Part shown: piece by piece, positions 3,300 through 50,036 of the stretch
How the letters are laid out: each line of letters starts with the position of its first letter
How positions within the stretch are numbered: position 1 is the first letter of the stretch
Assembly (NCBI GenBank): GCA_951406725.2
Contig: OX597814.1
Span: 49,972,001 to 50,036,000 of the forward strand
Direction of reading: 5' to 3'
Origin: Octopus vulgaris
Taxonomy: Eukaryota
DNA length: 64,000 nt
Position numbers and translations under genes: made by a program
Notes under the pieces: generated by a model
What the model saw: the letters and a program-made list of their open reading frames with translations, nothing else
Databases searched by the model: none
Told to the model about the DNA's origin: nothing

Positions 3300-3740
3300 T
3301 AGATTCGCTTCAGTATCTGTCTGTTTCGGACTGTCTGTGCATAGGGCCCACCCGGACTACTGCCTTTGCTGTGAACAGGAATCAATCTTCTCCCTTCATT
3401 ACTTTGCTCCTTACGGCCTGAAATCGCCACCTCTCTTCATCCAACACCAACTCCACACAGATTCCCATACACCTCTTACATTCAACTGTTCCTCTCTCCA
3501 CCCCACACCGCCTTAGTCGGTACTCCCACTACACACGCCACTATACATATACTCATACACATAGTTCAACTCAGTAATCACATCGCACACCATTACGCAC
3601 ACACACCTTCCCACTCCATACATACTGGCACCCAACAGCTCTCACTACCCACACCACATAACATTATCCACACATCTACATACACTCTTCCATATCTTCA
3701 CCACCACACCACTATAGGAACACACCTACATACTGTAAAT
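3300..3740 (+). mobile_element. Penelope-like element 3' remnant (GIY-YIG C-terminus followed by C/A-rich tract)
   Basis: Translates to ...CEQESIFSLHYFAPYGLKS, resembling the REQxxIxxLxTxxPxGLN end of Penelope GIY-YIG domains. Confidence 0.5.
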
Positions 3741-4735: not shown

Positions 4736-5140
4736 ACACAGTCACGCGTGTTTGTTTGTGTGCATTAATATCTTATTTCATTCGACGAAAGTCCTGTATT
4801 TTAGGAGGCGCCAAGTTGAATAATTTAGAGAGTTATTGCGTTTCTACTTCTCCGATCATTCGCCTGTGAAAAGAAAGTAAGTTCCATATCGTTCTGTTGC
4901 AAAATACAAAGCCTTTGCTTGGAAGCAAAGGAAAATAAAAATAAAAAAGATTCAAAATTACTTTCTTGTTACTTTTGAGTTCTCACTCGTAATAGTCTTC
5001 CTGTTGCGAGGTTAAACATTTTAAATGAGGACCGCTACCAACAGAGTTGTAAGTAAGGAAGGTGGATATTTATTTTCTCTTGAAATATTAATATAACTCA
5101 ATAGTTTTGTACATCATCTTCTTTCTTATGTAAGCCATAG

Positions 5141-5202
<62 letters not shown>

Positions 5203-6688: not shown

Positions 6689-7384
6689 TTCCTGTTCTAG
6701 CGTGATAGAGGTATATCTAATTCGTCCTTCTGATTAACACCAGCCCTAAATCTACTCTGTTGTATGCATTTGGGTTAGTTTTGTGACCTGCGCATAGCTT
6801 CCTAACTTCTCTCTCTCACTTGACACGGACGTCTTGAAAAGGGCTATAAGTGCAGCGCTTCTTTGTGCAAGCTTTTAAATGCTCACATACACATACACAT
6901 ACACACTCACACACGTACACACAGACGCGCACATACACACACACGTATATACGTGTTTGTGTGTATGCTACTGGCAAAGCAGTACATTAACTATCATGGA
7001 ACTTACGAGGTGTGGCAGCTAGTGGTTCGGAGAGTGGGGTAGTAAATGCAAACTGGAGGAGACTGTGTTGAAGAAGCGGGTGGCGAGAATGGAGATGAGG
7101 TATACATTAACAGTACACAACGGGCCTCAGGTTTTTACCGGTTTATATTTATGCTAAATGGACTTTGGAATCACCTTGCACATCAAATAAGTTTTCCCTC
7201 TAACTGAAAATAGTTTCAGGATGGCAATTAATAGTCTAGAGTGTATTTTCCAACTACATACCATTAAGAATGTACATACTGTTTAGTAGCAAGTTTACAT
7301 CAACGAGATCAGTTACCGGATGGTTTAATTTATCCTTCATTAAAAAAGCATTACCAAAGGCCCCAATTTTATTGATTGCCGCCC

Positions 7385-25903: not shown

Positions 25904-27174
25904 TTGGCTTCACAACTAAGTTCGAACCGATTTTTTAAATTTAAATTTTTTAAAAGGTTTAATAAAAAAATAACAACTAATTAATCGATAATGTATTCAC
26001 CTTTGTTGTTTACAACTTCTTCCCTACGTTCAACAACATTTTCAATATTTCGTTGGTAGAAATCACCCAATTTCAACTCGAAAAACTGATCCAACAAAGC
26101 TCTCAATTCTGCATCAGTATTGAAAGAAACTCCGCGCATAGCGTTTGAAAGAGATCGAAAAAGGTGGAAATCCGTTGGTGCGAAATCAGTGAGTACGGTG
26201 GGTGTGGCAGCACTTCCCGCCCATGCGTTTGAATGGCTTCCTTGGTCATATTGGCGATATGAGGGCGGGCGTTGTCGTGCAGCAGAACTCCATGTTGCGG
26301 ATTAGGTCTTTTCTCTTGAATAGCCGTGTTGAGTCATTCCATCTATTGAACATATAGTTCCGCGTTGACCGTTTGGTTCCGTTCAAGCAATTCGTAATGG
26401 ATAATCCCTTCCAAGTCCCATCATACGCACAACATCGTTTTACGCGGATGAAAATCTTGTTTCACGCGCGGTGCCGCTTGTTTACCAAGGCTAAGCCATT
26501 CCTTACACTGCTTCATATTGATGTACAGGCACAATACTTCGTCTCCAGTAACGCCTCGTTAAAGAAATCGTTGCTTATGTCCATGAGTTGAATGATGACG
26601 AGCAAGCAAACCAGCGGGGATTGTGACTCGTTGATTTTTGTTGTTGTAACTTAAAGCATGCGGAAACCATGCTCCATACTTCTGAACCTTTCCTATCGAG
26701 TGAAGATGCTTCTCTATAGCAGTGTGGGAGCATTTCATTTTCTTTGCCAGTTCCCTTGTCGTTTGACGAGAATTTTCGTGCAAAAGTTGGTTTAATCGCT
26801 CTTCATGGCACTCAACTGGACGGCCAGGACGAGGTGCGTCTTTGAGGTCCAAATTTCCATTTTTGAACTTGGCATACCAATCACGAGCAGTTCTTTCAGC
26901 TATGGCATCCTCTCCATACACAGCCCAAATGTCGCGAGAAGCTTTTGCGGCCTCAGAACCTTGATTAAAGTGTCGAAAATGCTCGTTTTTCTTAACTTGA
27001 CATTCCATTTTAATGATCTGAAAACAAACAAAAATTAACTAAAATTAACTACAAAAAAAAAAAAATTCCAAAATGATTCAAAAATAGAATTCTCGAAGAA
27101 AATAGATTCCAAAATTTAAAAATGCAATAAATTCCAAAATTAAAAAAAAGGCGGTAACTTAGTTGCCAACCCTA
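25904..27174 (-). mobile_element. Decayed full-length mariner (mellifera-like)
   Basis: Imperfect TIRs with TA flanks; ORF 26559-27008 MECQVKKNEHFRH...PRPGRP...WFPHAL; frameshifted APTDFHLFRSL near 26150-26190. Confidence 0.92.
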
Positions 27175-28038: not shown

Positions 28039-28271
28039 AAGGCGGCGAGCTGGCAGAAGCGTTAGCACGCCGGGCGAAATGCTTTGCGGTATTTCGTCTG
28101 TCGCTACGTTCTGAGTTCAAATTCCACCGAGGTCGAATTTACCTTTCATCCTTTCGGCGTCAATAAATTAAGTACCAGTTTCGCACTGGGGTCGATGTAA
28201 TCGACTTAATACGTTTGTCTGTCCTTGTTTGTCCCCTCTGTGTTTAGCCCCTTGTGGGTAGTAAAGAAATA
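28039..28271 (+). mobile_element. SINE family A, full length with 17-bp TSD
   Basis: GAAATTAA(T/C)ACACTTTA at 28022-28038 and 28272-28288. Confidence 0.92.
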
Positions 28272-28301: not shown

Positions 28302-28477
28302 CAGGACCTTTACAATAAGGATAGGAAGGGGCTCATTGCAGTAGTATTTGGAGAGGATGCGGTGCAGGGATGCCCAATCCCTGTACCCGCTATGAAGCTT
28401 TTCTATAGGGTTAGGCTCTCCACTCCGGGCCTTGAGGTGGATCACTCCGACTACTCGTCCTCCTCAAAGGTGGATAA
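28302..28477 (+). repeat. 176-bp copy of R2 sequence matching 32567-32742
   Basis: Manual alignment, 4 mismatches, no indels. Confidence 0.95.
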
Positions 28478-29558: not shown

Positions 29559-29770
29559 CCTTTCTACAATAGGCACAAAGCCTAAAATTTAGGGAGGAGG
29601 ATAGTCTATTACATTGACTCCAATTCTCAACTAGTACTTATATCATCGACCCCGAAAGGATGAAGGACAAAGTCGACCTCGGCGAAATTTGAACTCAGAA
29701 CGTAGTGACGGGGGAAATATCGCTAAGCATTTCGTCCAGCGCGCTATGATCCTCCTGCATGCTCACCGCT
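29559..29770 (-). mobile_element. SINE family A (alternative 3' tail)
   Basis: ATCGACCCCGAAAGGATGAAGG.CAAAGTCGACCTCGGCG core; tail differs from 691-760. Confidence 0.85.
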
Positions 29771-29925: not shown

Positions 29926-31085
29926 AGCTTAATACATTGCTTAATAGAGAAGAAATCCCAGACCGGTTGACAAAAGGAGGAATGGTGTTGTGTCTGAAGG
30001 ATGCATCGAAACGAAATACTGCTGACAATAATAGGCCAATTTCTTGCCTCCCATTAATGTGGAAGTTACTCTGAGAAGGAATTGCAGAAGAACTATACAA
30101 ATTTCTTGATGAGAACGATAAATTACCCCCGGAATAAAAATGCTGTAGAAGGAGTTGTAGAGGTACCAAAGATTATTGATAGACAAAATGGTAATGCAAG
30201 ATTGTAAACGAAAGAGAACAAATTTGGGAATGGCCTGGATCGACTATCGCAAAACATATGATATGATTCTACATTCGTGGGCCATCGAGTGCTTAGATCT
30301 GTTTGGAATTGCGAGGAATGTAACGTGTTTCCTCAACAGAAGTATAGTGGGGTGGAAAACTGAACTGACATCCTACGGAAAAGTTTGTGCACCATGGGCC
30401 AGAAGAGGGATTTTCTAGGGTGATAGCTTATCTCTGTTGCTTTTTGTTCTCTGCATGATCCCTCTGACTTTGGTACTTAAGAAAATGAACCTGGGATATC
30501 AGCTTAAAGGAAAATCTCAAACAGTCAACCACCTCATCTTCATGGTTGATTTGAAACTGTATGGCGAGGATGAGACACAAGTGAGTTCCTTGGTGAACAT
30601 GGTCTACTGTTTTAGTGCTGATACTAGAATAGAATTCGAACTCAAGAAATGTGGAATAATCTCCCTAAAATGAGGCAAGGTAGAGTCCCTAGCAAGGAAA
30701 GAATTACCGAATAGAGAAGAGATTAAATAAATTGAAACAGGAGGCTACATACCTTGGCACATTAGAGTTCAACGAGATGATGGAGAAGGAAATGAAAGAT
30801 CAACTGAGGATGGAATATTTCCGAAAACTAAGGTTGTAGTTGCTCTCAAAATTGACGGGATGGAATAAAATCCAAGTGGTTAGTACATGGGCGATAGCAT
30901 CACTCCGGCAAGGAGCTGGAAGTAAAAAATGGCAAAAGAAAAAACTAATGAAAATGGATCTGAAGACAAGAAAAAACGTTTACAGTGTACGGAGCCTTCC
31001 AACTTAAGAGTGACACCGATAGGCTGTACTTGTCCAGATAAAAGGGTGGGAGAGGTTTGGTTAATTGTTAGGATCGTATCGGAGC
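29925..31085 (+). pseudogene. R4/Dong-type LINE reverse transcriptase remnant
   Basis: [44 protein letters not shown], then an RLYL..GGRGL-like region. Confidence 0.88.
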
Positions 31086-31169
31086 GGAATGACGATGATG
31101 ACGACAACGACGACGATACTGATGAGGATTTTATTTTTGTTTAAAAATTACCAACCCATTAAGTGTTTA

Positions 31170-31680: not shown

Positions 31681-32420
31681 TCTGTGAGGTTTTCTTGACA
31701 TGTAGCAATTTCCCTTATGGGTCATATATACATACATGATACTGTAAGGTGTGATTCTTGGGACATGTAGCCGTTATTTCTACCAGGTGAAGATAGCATG
31801 TAAAGATTCTCACGTTGGCCAATACAGGCATATATATATGCACGCACATATATTAAAAAGTTGAGTATGATAAGATGAATTGTTTTCACGTCTCAATAAG
31901 AAGCTTGCATAGCTTACTTACAGAGTAACAGTTAGGTGGATGGGTCTGAAGAAATCTTTTGAAATAATCTGCAGATATACGATTAATTTCGAAATCTGGA
32001 GATCGTTAAATTGTATTATTGAGATGATTGATGTATCAGATCAATACTTATAAGAACTGTGGTGTATATGACTTTTTGGTCAAACTAAAGTGTCTGACTC
32101 GAGCAAAAAATTAATTAAAAATTAGTGTAATAGGTATAAACTAACTTGCTGTAAACGAATATGAAAAAAAAATCGCTCTCGCGAACGGGGTCTGGGGGAC
32201 TCGGAATATTCACATCGTGAATTTTCCGAGTCGTCTCACCACAGAAAAAAAAAATTAGTGTAATAGGTGTACAACAACATGTAGTAAACGAATATGAAAA
32301 AAAATTGTACGCTTGCGAACGGGGGTGGGAGAGAGGTCTCGGAAAATTCACATCGTCAGACAATGACCTTTAAACTCTAGTGTTTGACCGGAGCAAAAAA
32401 AAATAATTAAAAATTAGTGT

Positions 32421-35022
32421 GGAATTCTTTCATTAGAAATGTAGAGGACTGGGTGAAGCATTATAGGTTGCACAGTATGGAGGCTACTAGAGGGTACAAA
32501 GGAACAAAAAATGAGAACCGCTCCAAATTTCGGCGGCGTGAAAAGTTGTTTCGATTTGCACGCCACCAGGACCTTTACAATAAGGATAGGAAGGGGCTCA
32601 TTGCAGTAGTATTTGGAGAGGATGTGGTGCAGAGATGCCCAATCCCTGTGCCCGCTATGAAGCTTTTCTATAGGGTTAGGCTCTCCACTCCGGGCCTTGA
32701 TGTGGATCACTCCGACTACTCGTCCTCCTCAAAGGTGGATAACGATCCTATTTTGCGACCGTTCTCTGGGAAGGGGGTGAAAATTAGTCGGAGACAAATG
32801 AATCCTTTCTCAGCGGCGGGTCCTGATGGACTTAGCGTTCGTGAGGTTAATTCCATGGACCCCTGTATCCTCACCAACGTGTGTAACTGCATGTTGCTGA
32901 CCGGGAAGGTTCCCAATATCCTGTAGCGAGGAAGATCCGTCCTCTATACCTTAGAAGGGGAACGATCCTATGGACGTCACCAATTGGCGACCACTGACGA
33001 TATTTTCTGCGGTGTATCGTACGGATTTATCCGGGCTGATGGCTGCAGCGAGAACTCTTTTCTCCTGCGGCAATTGGTCAACCGAGCGATGGGGAGGCCA
33101 GCACTGCTGAGAATACCGCGTCTAGAGGTGGCTTTCATGGATATCGTCAAGGCCTTCGATACAGTCGCGCACTCGTTGGTGTACGTGGGACTGCGAAGGC
33201 TTAGCTACCACGAGCACGTTATAGCGCTCGTGGAGGGGATCTATGTAAGTAGCGCTACCAGATTCTCAGTCGGTGGGCAACTTAGCGAGCCCATCGAGAT
33301 TTGGGGTGGTGTTAGACAAGGGGACGCACTGTCGCCAGTCCTCTTTAGTATTGCGACCGACCCGCTGTTAGATGTTCTGTCAGACAGCGGAGGTCTCAGT
33401 GTTGAGGGGATCAGAATAGCAGGGCTCGCGTACGCTGACAATTTGGTCCTAGTTGCTGGGTCGCACGATGGTCTCCAAACTCTTGTGGATAGATACCTGG
33501 AGTTCTATCGCGCAATCGGGCTAGGTATCAACATCGGTAAACGTGCGTGATTCTCCATTCGTGGCTGGGACAAGTCCTATCTTGTCAACGATAGCACTCC
33601 GCCGAGTCTCGATGGTATTGCGATGGAAAACGTAGAACTGGGAGAGAAGGTGTCCTACCTAGGACTTTATATTCCTAAATGGACTTCCAGCTCGAGTCGG
33701 GAATTTTGCTTAGATTCAGTGGGGCAGGTGTCCCTGAATATCGATAAGATTTGCAGGGCTCCACTGACACCCCGACAGAAATTCCTCTTGTTACAACAGT
33801 ATTATTTGCTGAGACTATTTCATAGTCTCACGCAGGTGCTACCGTCAAAAGGAATTCTCCTTGAACGGGCTTCAGTGTGGGAGCTAGGCGGATTCTTCAT
33901 TTCCCGGATACCATTTCTTCCTTTCTATATAGCATCCGGCGTGATGGCTGGTTAAGTGTTCACCAGATGGTGAAGATGACCCCCAAATGTGTCATCCGCC
34001 GTAATCTTCGCCTTCTGACGTCGGGATACGCCTCCGTGAAAAAGATTGCTGATTCTGCAGGATTAGCTGAACAGAATCAGCAATTAGTAGCTTCCATCGA
34101 CTTGCCGTTGCTCCCTGCTGACAATACCGAATACGACCCGGACATCCGGCTGGTGCACTCCCATAGATGCACGGGGGCGTGTGCGGCGGTGTTTCGTGGG
34201 AATGCAATTGGCAATAGTTGGATAAGTAGACCGGGTGCTGATTACGGAGAAGTGCTTCTTGAGTTTATTCAAGATGCGCTCCAACGTATTTCCCTCCCGA
34301 GAGATCTTGACACGTGGTGGCCGAGGGGACTTCGCGTGCCCAAGATGTAGTGTAGGGGTGGCGACAATATCTCACGTCAGTGGAATTTGCAGATGCAACA
34401 AAATCTGTAATCTGGTAACGAAAGAAGCTGCCAACTATGGCTAGAGTATCAGCGTGGAGGCTTCGTACATTGTTGGAGGCTCCAGGCTGATACCCGACTT
34501 AGTCTTTAACCATCCTAAGAAAATAGTAGTAGTAGTAGTCGACGTGACAGTCCGGTTGGAGCAGGGAGATGCCTTGAGAGAGGTATCTCTTGAGAAAGAG
34601 CGCAAGTATCGACCGCTCATACCATTGCTGTTTTGTAAGAGTTTAATCGGTCGGTAGAAGTGCATGGACTCCCAATCGGTGCCTGTGGTGCCTGGTGCTG
34701 GCCTGCGAGTGCGACACTAGTTGCTTTGGGCATTAAGGACAGGTCATTCCGACGACTTCTCAGCAGGACGGCTCTCAGCATGAGGATCTTGCGGACAGGA
34801 TCCCTGTATGATGACTAGGAGTAACTAAAATCATAAAATATGACAATAATACCGGATTGACAAAATAGGTGGTTCACATGTACCCTTGGCGGGTTAGTAG
34901 GAGTCTCCCTAGGAATGACACTTTTCTAGTGCCTGCGTTCGTGCGTGTGGCTAATGACGGGGCATTAGTGGGACCGCCCACTATAATCAAAGGGAAAGAA
35001 TTGGCAAAGTCAATACACACAA
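32421..35022 (+). mobile_element. 5'-truncated, frameshifted R2-clade non-LTR retrotransposon (RT + CCHC + RLE + 3' UTR)
   Basis: SAAGPDG, GFIRADGCSEN, FMDIVKAFD, GVRQGDALSP, LAYADN, APLTPRQK, CPRC..TISHVSGIC, IPDLVF, VVDVTV, EKERKY, VHGLPIGACGAW; stop at 34816-34818; followed by the 28S target sequence. Confidence 0.88.
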
Positions 35023-35038
35023 TAGCCAAATGCCCCGT
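35023..35038 (+). other. 28S rRNA R2 target-site downstream flank (15/16 match)
   Basis: TAGCCAAATGCCCCGT vs the conserved 28S AAGG^TAGCCAAATGCCTCGT, at the R2 3' junction. Confidence 0.85.
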
Positions 35039-35959
35039 TTGTTGTACACCTATTACATTATTTTTTTCTTTTTTTTTTGTTCGGGTCAAACACTAAAGTT
35101 TAAAGATCATTGTCTGACGATGTGAATTTTTCCAGTCCTCCCCTACCCCCGTTCGCGAGCATTTTTGTTTTCATATTCGTTTACAGCAAGCTCTTTTACA
35201 CCGACTGCACTAATTTTTAATTATTTTTTTGCTCGGGTCAAACACCTTAGTTTGACCGATTTTTCTTTAAAGATTCAGTACCATATGTTGTTTAAAAAAA
35301 CATTTGAAAAGAAAAAGGAGTTCTTCATAGAATACAAAACCTGAATACAATCCATTTTTTACATATGTAACAAATTATTACAAGGACTACCATTAAAAAA
35401 AATCACTTGGCGCATGCAGACATCTCACCGATTTCCATTGATACAGGAATTCGGTAATGAAGAACTGAAACATTTTGACGTTATATTCATTATTCTTTTT
35501 TGCTTTACATTGTAGTTCATGGAAACTTGGTCCAACCAATAACTGTCGCCAAGTCAGTCAAGTCGATATATTCACTATTTATCGTAGAACTTTTTAGTTC
35601 AATACCTGGTTGTAGGGAAAAAAATTCCTCATGGAGAATGTTCCAGAGAGCTGTAGTTCAGGAATAAATGCGATCAATAGGCAAGTTTAAGGAAGAAACT
35701 CAGTACTCTTAACAAGAGGATGAAATTAAACTTTTGTGCTATAGGATTAGATAGATCTTGATAGAAATATTACACACCTTACCTGTCCAGAAAAGCATAC
35801 AGTGTTGTAGAATAGCAAATAGAAATTGCTGATGAGTGTAGAATAACTCTTCAGCTATGATAACCGATCTTCTTGTTCTTCTTCTTTCCAGGGAAATAAT
35901 GGGTTCCAAGCAGAGGCAACGGGCTGTCAACGAGATCTTTACGAAGAAGGTGCTGCATA

Positions 35960-39702: not shown

Positions 39703-40650
39703 TAACTGCAAAGACAAAAGCACATGAAAAGTTGCTAGCAGATGGGAACAGAAACCTCTGCATGGCAAGTATGTGGCCCGTAGCAAACAAGCTGATGTCG
39801 ACCAGAAACACACGCATCAATGGTTACGAAGCTAAGGGCTAAAAGCAGAGTGAAGGTTTCATATTAGCTGCTCAAGACCAAAGCTTATTAATCCGGAACT
39901 ACCAAGCCAATGTGATAAAAAATGGAGCTGACCCCAAATGCCGATTCTGTAACGATGAGATTGAAACTATAGACCACCTAATCTCAGGGTATAGAGTTTT
40001 AGACATGACAGAGTGGGACAGTATTTACACTGGACAATATGTCAGCATTATAAAATCAAAACCGCTGACAAATGGTATAAACACCATCCTGAAGCTGTGA
40101 CTGGGGAAGAAAATGTGTTGATACTCTGGGACTTCCCCGTACATACCGACAGAACTATAAAAGCTAATAAACCGGATATTATTATAAAAGATCAGGCAAA
40201 AAAGGCGTGTTTGTTAATTGACATGAGTATTCCTTGCGATCACAATACAGCAGCGAAAGAATTTGACAAGATCAGTAAATATAAAGACTTGCCAATAGAA
40301 ATTGAAAAAATGTGGCATCTCAAGGCGACTACAATACCAGTGATTGTAGGATATCTAGGAATGATAAAAAAAGGTACTGAAACCTATTTGAAAATGATAC
40401 CAGTCTTACCATCCCAACAGGAAGTGCAAAAAATCGTATTAACTGAAACGACTCATGTACTGAGAAAAGCATTATCGCTGTGAAAACAACATCCATTCGT
40501 GAATTTATATATTTATCAATTTTTTAAATACATATTCTACTTGTGAATTTGCGTGTGTAATCTGAGAATGCATACAATGAGCTCCTCTGCCCTAGGTGTA
40601 CGGAAAACACTCGGCAAGGAATGGAAGAAAATTTGAAGAAAGAAGGAAAA
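39703..40650 (+). mobile_element. R4/Dong-type LINE 3' part (CCHC + RLE + 3' UTR) ending in (AAC)n(AAT)n
   Basis: KPLHGKY, EGFILAAQDQ, CRFC..ETIDHLISG, ILWDFPVHTD, KPDII, LIDM, KISKYKDL, IPVIVGYLG. Confidence 0.92.
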
Positions 40651-44981: not shown

Positions 44982-46131
44982 TATCTCGTGCAATTGCAGT
45001 TGTTCGGTGTGTCGCTGGAATCCTGAAGTGGACAGATCTAAAGGAGATAGACAGGAAGTCAAGAAAGCTTCTAACGATGCATGTTGCCAATCACCCACGT
45101 GCGGGCACTGATCGCCTATACCTGACGAGAGCAAATGGAGGAAGAGGATTGATAAGTGTGTGAGACTGCGTGCGTATCGAACTCGTGAGCTTAATGAGAT
45201 GTCTAGCCCAATGTAAGGAAACCTTGCTAGTGACAGTTAGGAACGAGGGAGTATTGAAAGTATGAAAAAAAGGAAAGCAAAGGAAGAGATACAAAAAGGA
45301 CATGAAAAATTACGCAACAAGGGACTACACAATCAATTCCATTTACCCACAACAGAAGTTGCGGGGAAAAATAGGTGGGATTGGCTGACGAAAGGAATCC
45401 TAAAACAAAAAGACCGAAAGCACCATATTGGCAGCGTAAGACTGAGCTTTGGCCGCGAACTGGAGGATCAACCTTAGGAATGAGCGAGTGACTCCGCTGT
45501 CATATCTGCAACAGAGTGGGTGAAACCATTGCCCATGTCACAAACGAATGTCCTAGGCTTGCCCAAAACCACGACAATTGTTGTGACACGACCAGGTAGC
45601 GAAAGTGCTACAGTGGAAACTGCGAAAAGTTGGGGCTAGAGAGAGGCAAGATGTGGTATGAGCACAAACCGCAGAGAGTGGCAGAATAAGAGTCTAGTAA
45701 AATCAGATCAGGTGCTAGAGCATAACAGACCAGACCTAGTGGTGGTGGACAAGATGCACTACATATGCTATATAGTTGATGTTGCATGTCCCTTTCCACC
45801 CACGAATAGTCAAGAAGGAAGACGAAAAGATAGATACAACCCTCTTAAGTACGAAATAGCCCGGATATGGGAAATGAAGAAAGCGAAGATAGTGCCAATT
45901 ATTGTTGTGTCCTTAGGAACAGTATCAGAAGGCATCAAGGGGGATATAAAGGAAATTGGAATAGAGTGCCCAGTAGAACTGTTACAAAAGGTTTACCTCC
46001 TTGGCACCGCCAGAATAATCAGTGTTAGATAGCTGAAAAGAACGAATAGCATTATACTGTAGGCTGCATGTAGTGAGCTTGCTATGCATGTAAGACTTCA
46101 GGAGCTCCAACAAAACCTGTGACAAAGAGAA
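44979..46131 (+). mobile_element. 5'-truncated R4/Dong-type LINE inserted in (TAA)n
   Basis: HPRAGTDRLYLTRANGGRGL, HNRPDLVVVDK, IVDVACPF, KYEIARIW, IVPIIVVSLG; (TAA)n on both sides. Confidence 0.9.
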
Positions 46132-47810: not shown

Positions 47811-48018
47811 TTTCAAATTTCGGCTCAAATTCCGCACGTTTGGGGGAGTATGTAAGTTGATTACATCGACCTCAGTGCTCAAATGGCACTTATTTAATCG
47901 ACCCCGAAAGGAAGAAAGGCACAATCGACCTCGGTGGAATTTGAACTCACAACGTAAAGACAGATGAAATGTGTTAAACTTTTTGCTGACGTGCTGACCA
48001 TTCTGCCAGCTCACCGCC
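47811..48018 (-). mobile_element. SINE family A (older)
   Basis: ATCGACCCCGAAAGGA ... TTTGAACTCA ... CTGCCAGCTCACCGCC. Confidence 0.85.
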
Positions 48019-49040: not shown

Positions 49041-49822
49041 CCATTATCGTTACTTATCATGTTTACTTATGCACATGCTGGTTGTTTCTTCTCATTGTTC
49101 TAATTGTTGTTAGTTGTTTCGTTACTTGAGTTTTCATAAAATATTCGTTCTTTTAAATGTTCTATTTCAGCTTCTGGCATTTTTTGGTTTTGACGATGCA
49201 TTTTTTAAAGTTAGGCCCGTCGCGTTCAGTGAAGTGCTTCTAAATATCATAACAATATATTGAAAATACAAGCGATGCTGTAAATTATGCATGTAGAATA
49301 GAAAGATGTTCTCATGTTCATTTATGCATCTGTTGTTTTATTAGCGAAACTTAAGGAATAAGGTCCATTCCTTTATTTAAAATTTCGGTAATTTCATTGG
49401 GTGTCGATGTATTTTGTTCCTTTGAAGTTGATTTTCGTGTGATAATTTTTCCGTATACTATGAGTATCAAATTCAAAGTATACAATTCACTATTTAAAGA
49501 AATATGGCTTAATGATATATTTTTAAAATTTGAATTATTTGTCATTTCTTTGTGACTGATCGTGGGGAGAAGAATCAATTTGGTATTACTATGGATCGTA
49601 GTTTAATAAGTTGTTTACACTTGGTATGAAGTACTATGTACATTTATAAAGCATCAATTAAATGTTGTAATGATCAATAAATTTCACAAAGTTATCCTTA
49701 GCATTTTGGCAAGTTTTTTGTCATATTTTTGTTACTTTTTGAATCATTGCTATTGGATATTGCTCAGAACCATCTATAGTGTTCTTTCTAGTCCATATAA
49801 CCTGTATTATTATTATTGTGAA

Positions 49823-50036
49823 GGTGGTGAGCAGGCAGAAACGTTAGCATGCCAGGCGAAACGCTTAGCAGTATTTCGCCCGTCGCTGCGTTCTGAGTTC
49901 AAATTCCGCCGAGGTCAACTTTGCCTTTTATCCTTTCGAGATCGATAAATTAAGTACCAGTTGAGTACTTGGATCGATGTGATCGACTGTCACCTCTTCC
50001 CACAAAATCTAAGCCCTGTGCCTATAGTAGAAAGGA
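49823..50036 (+). mobile_element. SINE family A
   Basis: GGTGGTGAGCAGGCAGAAACG ... GAGTTCAAATTCC ... GATAAATTAAGTACCAG. Confidence 0.85.

Follow-up and report, generated by a model that had tools for sequence, protein, structure and literature searches.

A decayed R2 retroelement with a 28S rRNA footprint between the inverted arms of a TIR element in Octopus vulgaris

Here we describe a decayed, 5′-truncated R2 retroelement of lineage A (32421-35022) which, together with a short 28S rRNA footprint at its 3′ end, is enclosed by both inverted arms of a TIR element, that is, stands as captured sequence between TIR arms, within a 64-kb stretch of the Octopus vulgaris genome (the whole of the DNA analysed, referred to below as the window; Table 1). 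The 28S remnant is genuine but ordinary, and the nesting in a TIR element is the sole unusual part. As to its origin, we give a probability of about 0.55 to the reverse transcription, at a break near the centre of a transposon, of an R2 RNA that had read through into a short stretch of 28S, followed by movement of the composite to at least one further locus. Judged mostly by titles and abstracts of papers and by passages of a review, with the curated repeat libraries (Repbase/Dfam) outside the scope, we found no description of an R2 with its footprint as the cargo of a TIR element, and none of such a nested element, again going by titles and abstracts, in the main texts of papers on octopus R2.

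Table 1. Positions of the nested R2 copy, its footprint and its container in the window
Feature	Position	Strand	Remarks
Left 8-base flank, candidate TSD	32070..32077	+	6/8 match to 35258-35265
Left arm, non-coding TIR element	32078..32420	+	~2.3 diverged units of 140-155 bp, begins GG
Decayed 5′-truncated R2 ORF	32421..34818	+	Linker, RT, thumb, CCHC knuckle (partly deleted), restriction-like nuclease
R2 3′ UTR	34819..35022	+	~204 nt, no poly(A)
UTR stretch antisense to 28S +4..+19	34954..34970	-	13 pairs, 2-nt bulge, 3 pairs
Hairpin, purine-rich hinge-like stretch and terminal stem	34965..35014	+	Predicted folds
28S rRNA footprint	35023..35038	+	+1..+16 downstream of R2 site, 15/16; 16/16 in other copies
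Right arm, TIR element	35039..35257	-	~1.45 inverted units, ends CC
Right 8-base flank, candidate TSD	35258..35265	+	Paired with 32070-32077

The 28S footprint and the R2 element

A sequence-only reading of this DNA had placed a 16-nt 28S footprint directly after the UTR at the R2 3′ junction. Its assertion was borne out: 15 of the 16 positions are identical to the reference 28S downstream of the R2 site, which was taken from the available part of PMC13188248 Table S2 and from the metagenome loci L001, L002 and L005, and the footprint is the single match in the whole window even with up to three mismatches. A match of at least 15/16 would arise by chance with a probability of 6.4e-9 at any one position, 2e-6 within the 300 nt that follow the ORF and 8e-4 across the whole window. 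The stretch was partly present in 20 of 24 sequencing runs, with five organisms, and four of the runs were examined (X1, X5, X8 and X14). The mismatch at 35035 is due to later decay, because contigs from other copies read the 28S base there: five of them, from three runs, do so (two in X5 with 49.7 of 67.5 depth, one in X8, and two in X14 with all depth). The final two to four bases of the footprint may be common to the arm, which leaves 12-16 bases as purely 28S. The absence of upstream 28S at the 5′ junction, also asserted from the sequence, was upheld: such a motif is absent at up to two mismatches throughout the window, where Rfam likewise found no rRNA.

For comparison, 80 metagenome loci were available, four of which match the query R2 over long distances at no less than 38%. 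Three of these four include a 3′ end. In all three the ORF is followed by a UTR of 160-230 nt and then directly by the same 28S. Because these relatives run from the UTR straight into the same 28S, we take 35022 to be the true R2 3′ end and the 16-mer to be target and not UTR; the contrary case, ordinary UTR sequence in a family whose other copies do not abut 28S, is at odds with three of three relatives. The lack of a poly(A) that had been pointed out was confirmed, yet it has no diagnostic value, since none of the three related 3′ ends has one.

The element is best assigned to lineage-A R2, since its protein (RT and nuclease), its geometry (ORF, ~200-nt UTR and 28S flank) and its footprint agree, and the footprint does, as previously suggested, support R2 identity apart from the protein, the three grounds being independent. 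Pfam identifies RVT_1 in the ORF, the RT is nearest to R2, and a C-terminal CCHC knuckle and restriction-like nuclease are present. The best solved RT relatives are the A-clade R2 structures 9nl3, 9dou and 9nl2 (E 5e-47 to 3e-46), as against 8gh6 at 1e-32 and L1 at 1e-4, and the C-terminal nuclease piece matches these three structures only (E 1e-10 to 3e-10). Homology extends to about 10 residues short of a relative's C-terminus, leaving a UTR of ~204 nt. The ORF has in-frame stops near 32924 and 33548 and frameshifts after about 33900; it is without zinc fingers or a Myb domain, the N-terminal region having been removed by truncation, and the CCHC knuckle of this copy has a deletion of about nine residues. 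Lacking an intact ORF, DNA-binding domains and a transposase, the element is inert now. Its 5′ end does not lie against upstream 28S and the copy is outside rDNA, which makes it a relocated derivative, not an rDNA-resident member.

Relatives of this R2 are distant. Among 1.84 billion representative proteins the closest full-length ones are ~35% identical, and word-index protein searches gave at best 32% over most of the RT. The closest by identity (47% over 148 residues, in the linker) is CAI9736399.1, a rearranged Octopus vulgaris R2 fragment; this annotated protein of 811 aa is composed of repeated R2 Myb and linker segments with no RT. A tree of 68 RT segments puts the element on a long branch (1.56), outside the one-finger clade and with no firm placement, and three of the five rows nearest to it in that loosely placed position bear three finger-like motifs. 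The linker is homologous by eye to Octopus sinensis and Eledone R2 proteins. We take the element to belong to another R2 family than those described from the rDNA of O. vulgaris and O. sinensis, because its UTR, compared by eye, differs from those of R2-1_OVu and R2-1_OSi: it is 204 nt long vs 700 nt in these two, and is unlike them over their first 400 bases (PMC13188248, available part).

The TIR container and its copies

The two arms, 343 and 219 bp long and ~80% alike, have a GC content of 36% vs 50% for the R2 cargo. Their termini are GG and CC, with 11 of 12 bases mirror-identical, and the element may extend outwards by another 1-2 bases; the 6/8 match of the flanks has a p of about 0.007-0.009 against local flank pairs, at this one locus. 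Each terminus (32078-32099 and 35236-35257) is palindromic over a short length, with arms of 8 bases; an additional inverted segment of 35 bases lies in the left arm at 32198-32232. The arm units are visible by alignment and were not called by Tandem Repeats Finder. One stretch of arm unit, 32155-32456, is very abundant in X1, where its summed depth is 51,705 vs ~60 in the unique flank and the summed depth of the left arm rises to as much as ~900-fold that of the unique flank, summed contig depth not being a copy number. Contigs of the arm unit contain many unit-skipping and back-jumping joints, like a variable-unit MITE family or satellite. A hit of mir-989 (Rfam) on the left arm, at 32.5 bits below the gathering score of 59, was treated as chance on a hairpin-rich repeat. 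The arm motif had no match in metagenome, viral or prokaryotic collections, and the intact R2 target none in viral contigs.

As a candidate assignment, the container may be Merlin-like. Merlin elements have GG termini, an 8-9-bp TSD and internal tandem repeats and are abundant in an octopus, according to the available text of PMC8101967, and the superfamily is annotated in O. vulgaris. The container has GG termini, an 8-base candidate duplication and internal tandem repeats in common with them; unlike the Merlin elements of that account, it has a duplication of 6/8 only and no transposase with these ends, such as the DDE_Tnp_IS1595 type expected of an autonomous Merlin partner, is seen in the window, so that Mutator or foldback-type elements are further candidates.

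The passage from footprint to TIR arm that the sequence-only reading had described was recovered in all four runs. Because contigs in every one of them span the UTR-footprint-arm join, the join is no assembly artefact. Contigs were compared with an 80% identity cut-off (X1 was read to 80%), and all counts given here are among the matches listed. One contig (X8 record 29), with 11 differences in 373 bases, continues into the unique right flank and is the ortholog. Another (X8 record 30) aligns to 34878-35130 without gaps, differs at 44 of 253 bases and keeps the R2-28S-arm join; at 17% divergence we read it as a paralog, whose flanks could partly fall below the 80% cut-off, and it is, among the matches listed, the one contig that is a clear paralog across the whole 3′ join. 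Depth of the right flank is single-copy (8-20 in X5), as against 68 in the UTR bin. Many diverged contigs map to the ORF region; over the footprint there are one to three contigs per run, and those that can be traced continue into the arm. Organism E has both flank-arm joins (records 8 and 15) at 6-7% difference, and the insertion is therefore old.

Depth at 35035 compared with 35016, in the UTR, was 58 vs 103, 67.5 vs 67.5, 14 vs 19 and 54.5 vs 54.5 in the four runs, and the arm bin next to the footprint had a depth of 154-1763. Since depth at the footprint never exceeds that of the UTR despite the abundance of the arm, no contig of the four runs carries the 16-mer without R2, among the matches listed, which speaks strongly, if not conclusively, against a decoy target. 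A joint between 32172 and 35081 was considered as an empty element and set aside, its short side of 22 letters being too weak.

The surrounding DNA holds other repeats. A 176-nt copy of 32567-32742, with four differences, lies at 28302..28477 (+) within another decayed LINE, with short shared words at each end; at four of four alleles checked, where the majority of other copies read differently, it agrees with this element, and it is likely to be a patch from repair, copied from the R2 element 4.3 kb away. A Mariner-type transposase fragment lies at 26559-27038 (-; HTH_48, E 5e-13), further LINE remnants of RT or nuclease-like character, weakly matching R2 relatives, at 29930-31100, 39860-40465 and 45430-46020, and SINE-like repeats at 28039-28206, 29592-29746, 47844-47970 and 49821-49991.

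Possible routes into the transposon

The 3′ end is complete and carries a short piece of target sequence, and the 5′ end is truncated; this combination points to reverse transcription of a read-through RNA. The template would have been an RNA ending about 16 nt into 28S, priming possibly occurred by a 4-base match of the tail (+13..+16) with an arm unit, and cDNA synthesis would have halted after 2.6 kb with the transposon centre lost. A transposase, probably of Merlin type, could then have multiplied the composite in a common ancestor of organisms A and E, all copies decaying afterwards. A-clade R2 requires primer and template to pair over ~4 nt, and no more than this is shared at its off-target sites (PMC11371274, passages available); footprint positions +13..+16 align with a 4-base word in all three other arm units. 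Several points count against this route. Only one contig is a clear paralog over the full join, among the matches listed, and flanks or a duplication of that paralog were not seen. The 4-base microhomology requires a 9-10-base deletion alongside it, and otherwise only 1-2 bases are common; avian R2, on target, leaves the rRNA tail uncopied (PMC11371274, passages available); and the arms meet across the R2 without spacer or duplication. The sequence-only reading had named either an rDNA locus or a read-through co-transcript as the source; its choice of two still stands, and we favour the co-transcript.

The other of these two sources corresponds to DNA capture of the Pack-TIR kind, in which a break in the transposon was repaired by a template switch onto R2-bearing rDNA and the composite then transposed. 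The arms stop at unequal unit points without a spacer, and gap-repair capture likewise leaves arms without spacer or duplication. Repetitive TIRs are break-prone, animal Pack-TIRs arise by gap filling with a median microhomology of 2 bp, and multicopy Pack-TIRs are known (all from the available text of PMC8277862). This route, however, needs a breakpoint that by chance or stalling falls within 16 bases of the R2 end; for a DNA tract of 2.6 kb we would put that at roughly a 1-in-100 coincidence, though the inverted match between UTR and tail might stall synthesis near +16. No other rDNA sequence is found in the window. On balance we think capture as DNA unlikely, while still holding about one chance in four for it, which makes it the main rival.

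A more speculative form of the RNA route concerns the length of the tail. The octopod R2 UTR could fold, at 34954-34970, onto its own 28S read-through tail (+4..+19) and so guard a tail of 16-19 nt, with the DNA transposon as the vehicle out of rDNA. The duplex with a 20-base 28S tail has -23.7 kcal/mol, and one of 500 shuffles was as strong; with a 16-base tail the statistic is weaker (23 and 34 of 3000 shuffles), and the antisense strand has a rival partner within the UTR near 34927-34938. This match was found post hoc, may be chance and is not general: among five other R2 UTRs, none beat its own shuffles, and the Eledone R2 UTR has a weaker look-alike by eye. The hairpin and terminal stem next to it are predicted with z of -0.5 and -1.5 by folding without pseudoknots; the 34965-35014 region resembles the pseudoknot-hinge-stem 3′ end of A-clade R2 in the available part of PMC12180492, its pseudoknot part being putative, and shares with the Eledone UTR, by eye, a hairpin and a purine-rich motif near the end. 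We consider the fold-back doubtful. If it were true, it would account for the length of the footprint and would offer a natural counterpart to the template tail that is hand-tuned in R2 gene-insertion tools; judged by titles and abstracts, we found no description in the literature of a UTR complementary to the 28S tail.

Two further explanations are improbable, and about equally so. By the first, the 16 bases would be a permanent part of the 3′ end of an R2 family that inserts non-specifically, one copy of which entered the transposon; fish R2 lineages with 28S-like UTR sequence would be the parallel. Seven R2 families have 28S-like 3′ UTR sequence and two families have lost specificity, in the available portions of the literature; many diverged contigs cover the ORF region, and annotation places a rearranged piece of R2 on an 84-Mb contig of Octopus vulgaris. 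On the other hand, other copies match 28S at 16/16, whereas UTR-resident 28S-like pieces are described, in the same portions, as diverged; the footprint directly follows the terminal stem, where true 28S stands in three of three relatives; and the few contigs over the footprint enter the arm wherever they can be traced. By the second, no transposase moved the composite, and what we see would be a segmental duplication of a single insertion or chance flanking repeat arrays. It would suit this reading that flanks of the paralog went unseen, that the two 8-base flanks have just six positions in common and that the arms are ~80% alike; it is opposed by terminal words that are mirror images at 11/12, by the p of less than 0.01 for the flank match, and by a flank depth that is single-copy where that of the interior is not.

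Least probable of all is a decoy, in which site-specific R2 insertion used a short 28S-like target already contained in the transposon: the R2 of locus L002, lying between ~55-base 28S pieces in non-rDNA, suggests that short dispersed targets may be used, and a 5′ deletion could have taken the upstream half, but depth at 35035 does not rise above that at 35016 in any of the four runs beside so abundant an arm, the motif is absent from three other arm units, upstream 28S is absent from the window, and the check proposed from the sequence, run on contigs, found no 16-mer in empty arm copies, so that the footprint was captured and the decoy is largely refuted on contigs.

Significance and comparison with known systems

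In the footprint a natural R2 template RNA can be said to have left a fossil trace of its 3′ end. Such an end normally escapes view, since the tail pairs with the target and stays uncopied. If the RNA route is the true one, native lineage-A transcripts reached at least 16 nt into 28S and were able to prime at a break with ~4 common bases, which bears on the off-target behaviour of R2 in gene insertion. Nesting would be one way to disperse an rDNA-locked element, and the copy adds a separate, octopod family to the R2 families on record for Octopus. The element is dead and low-copy, with no sign of host function, and its significance is limited accordingly.

Retroelement ends with pieces of 28S also occur at other loci. 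In L002 a full-length lineage-A R2 stands between ~55-base 28S pieces (605-657 and 5089-5141) in AT-rich, non-rDNA sequence. In L061 two element ends (3527-3568 and 6785-6823), each with 38-42 bases of 28S, are followed by other retroelement-like sequence. The latter were not counted as strays, since their 28S ends at about what we take to be the insertion site of R4-type elements; they are possibly doubly inserted rDNA units. In Drosophila, R1 copies at sites other than 28S have been found with as much as 14 nt of downstream 28S attached, which was taken as evidence of read-through (Stage and Eickbush 2009, PMC2718515, available text). R2 strays with 28S remnants are thus, going by that text and L002, ordinary, and the present copy likewise joins a retroelement 3′ end to short downstream 28S in non-rDNA, often repeat, sequence. 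It differs in that the 14-nt precedent belongs to R1 and not R2, and in that those copies are not described as TIR cargo in the available text.

Among named elements, the relatives of the cargo are the lineage-A R2Tg (PDB 9dou, 9nl3) and 9nl2, and in cephalopods R2-1_OVu, R2-1_OSi, R2-1_ORu and R2-1_ECi (PMC13188248 Table S2, available part). Unlike rDNA-resident lineage-A R2, the copy described here is dead, 5′-truncated, outside rDNA and within a TIR element. As a composite it is closest in kind to Pack-TIR and Pack-MULE elements such as Ssk-FB4 (Tan et al. 2021, PMC8277862, available text), with which it shares a foreign, GC-richer cargo between repetitive arms and, counting the paralog, the presence of more than one copy. 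In contrast to those Pack-TIRs, for which DNA template switching is described, its cargo is an rDNA-specific retrotransposon together with a footprint of its target, and was likely acquired via RNA.
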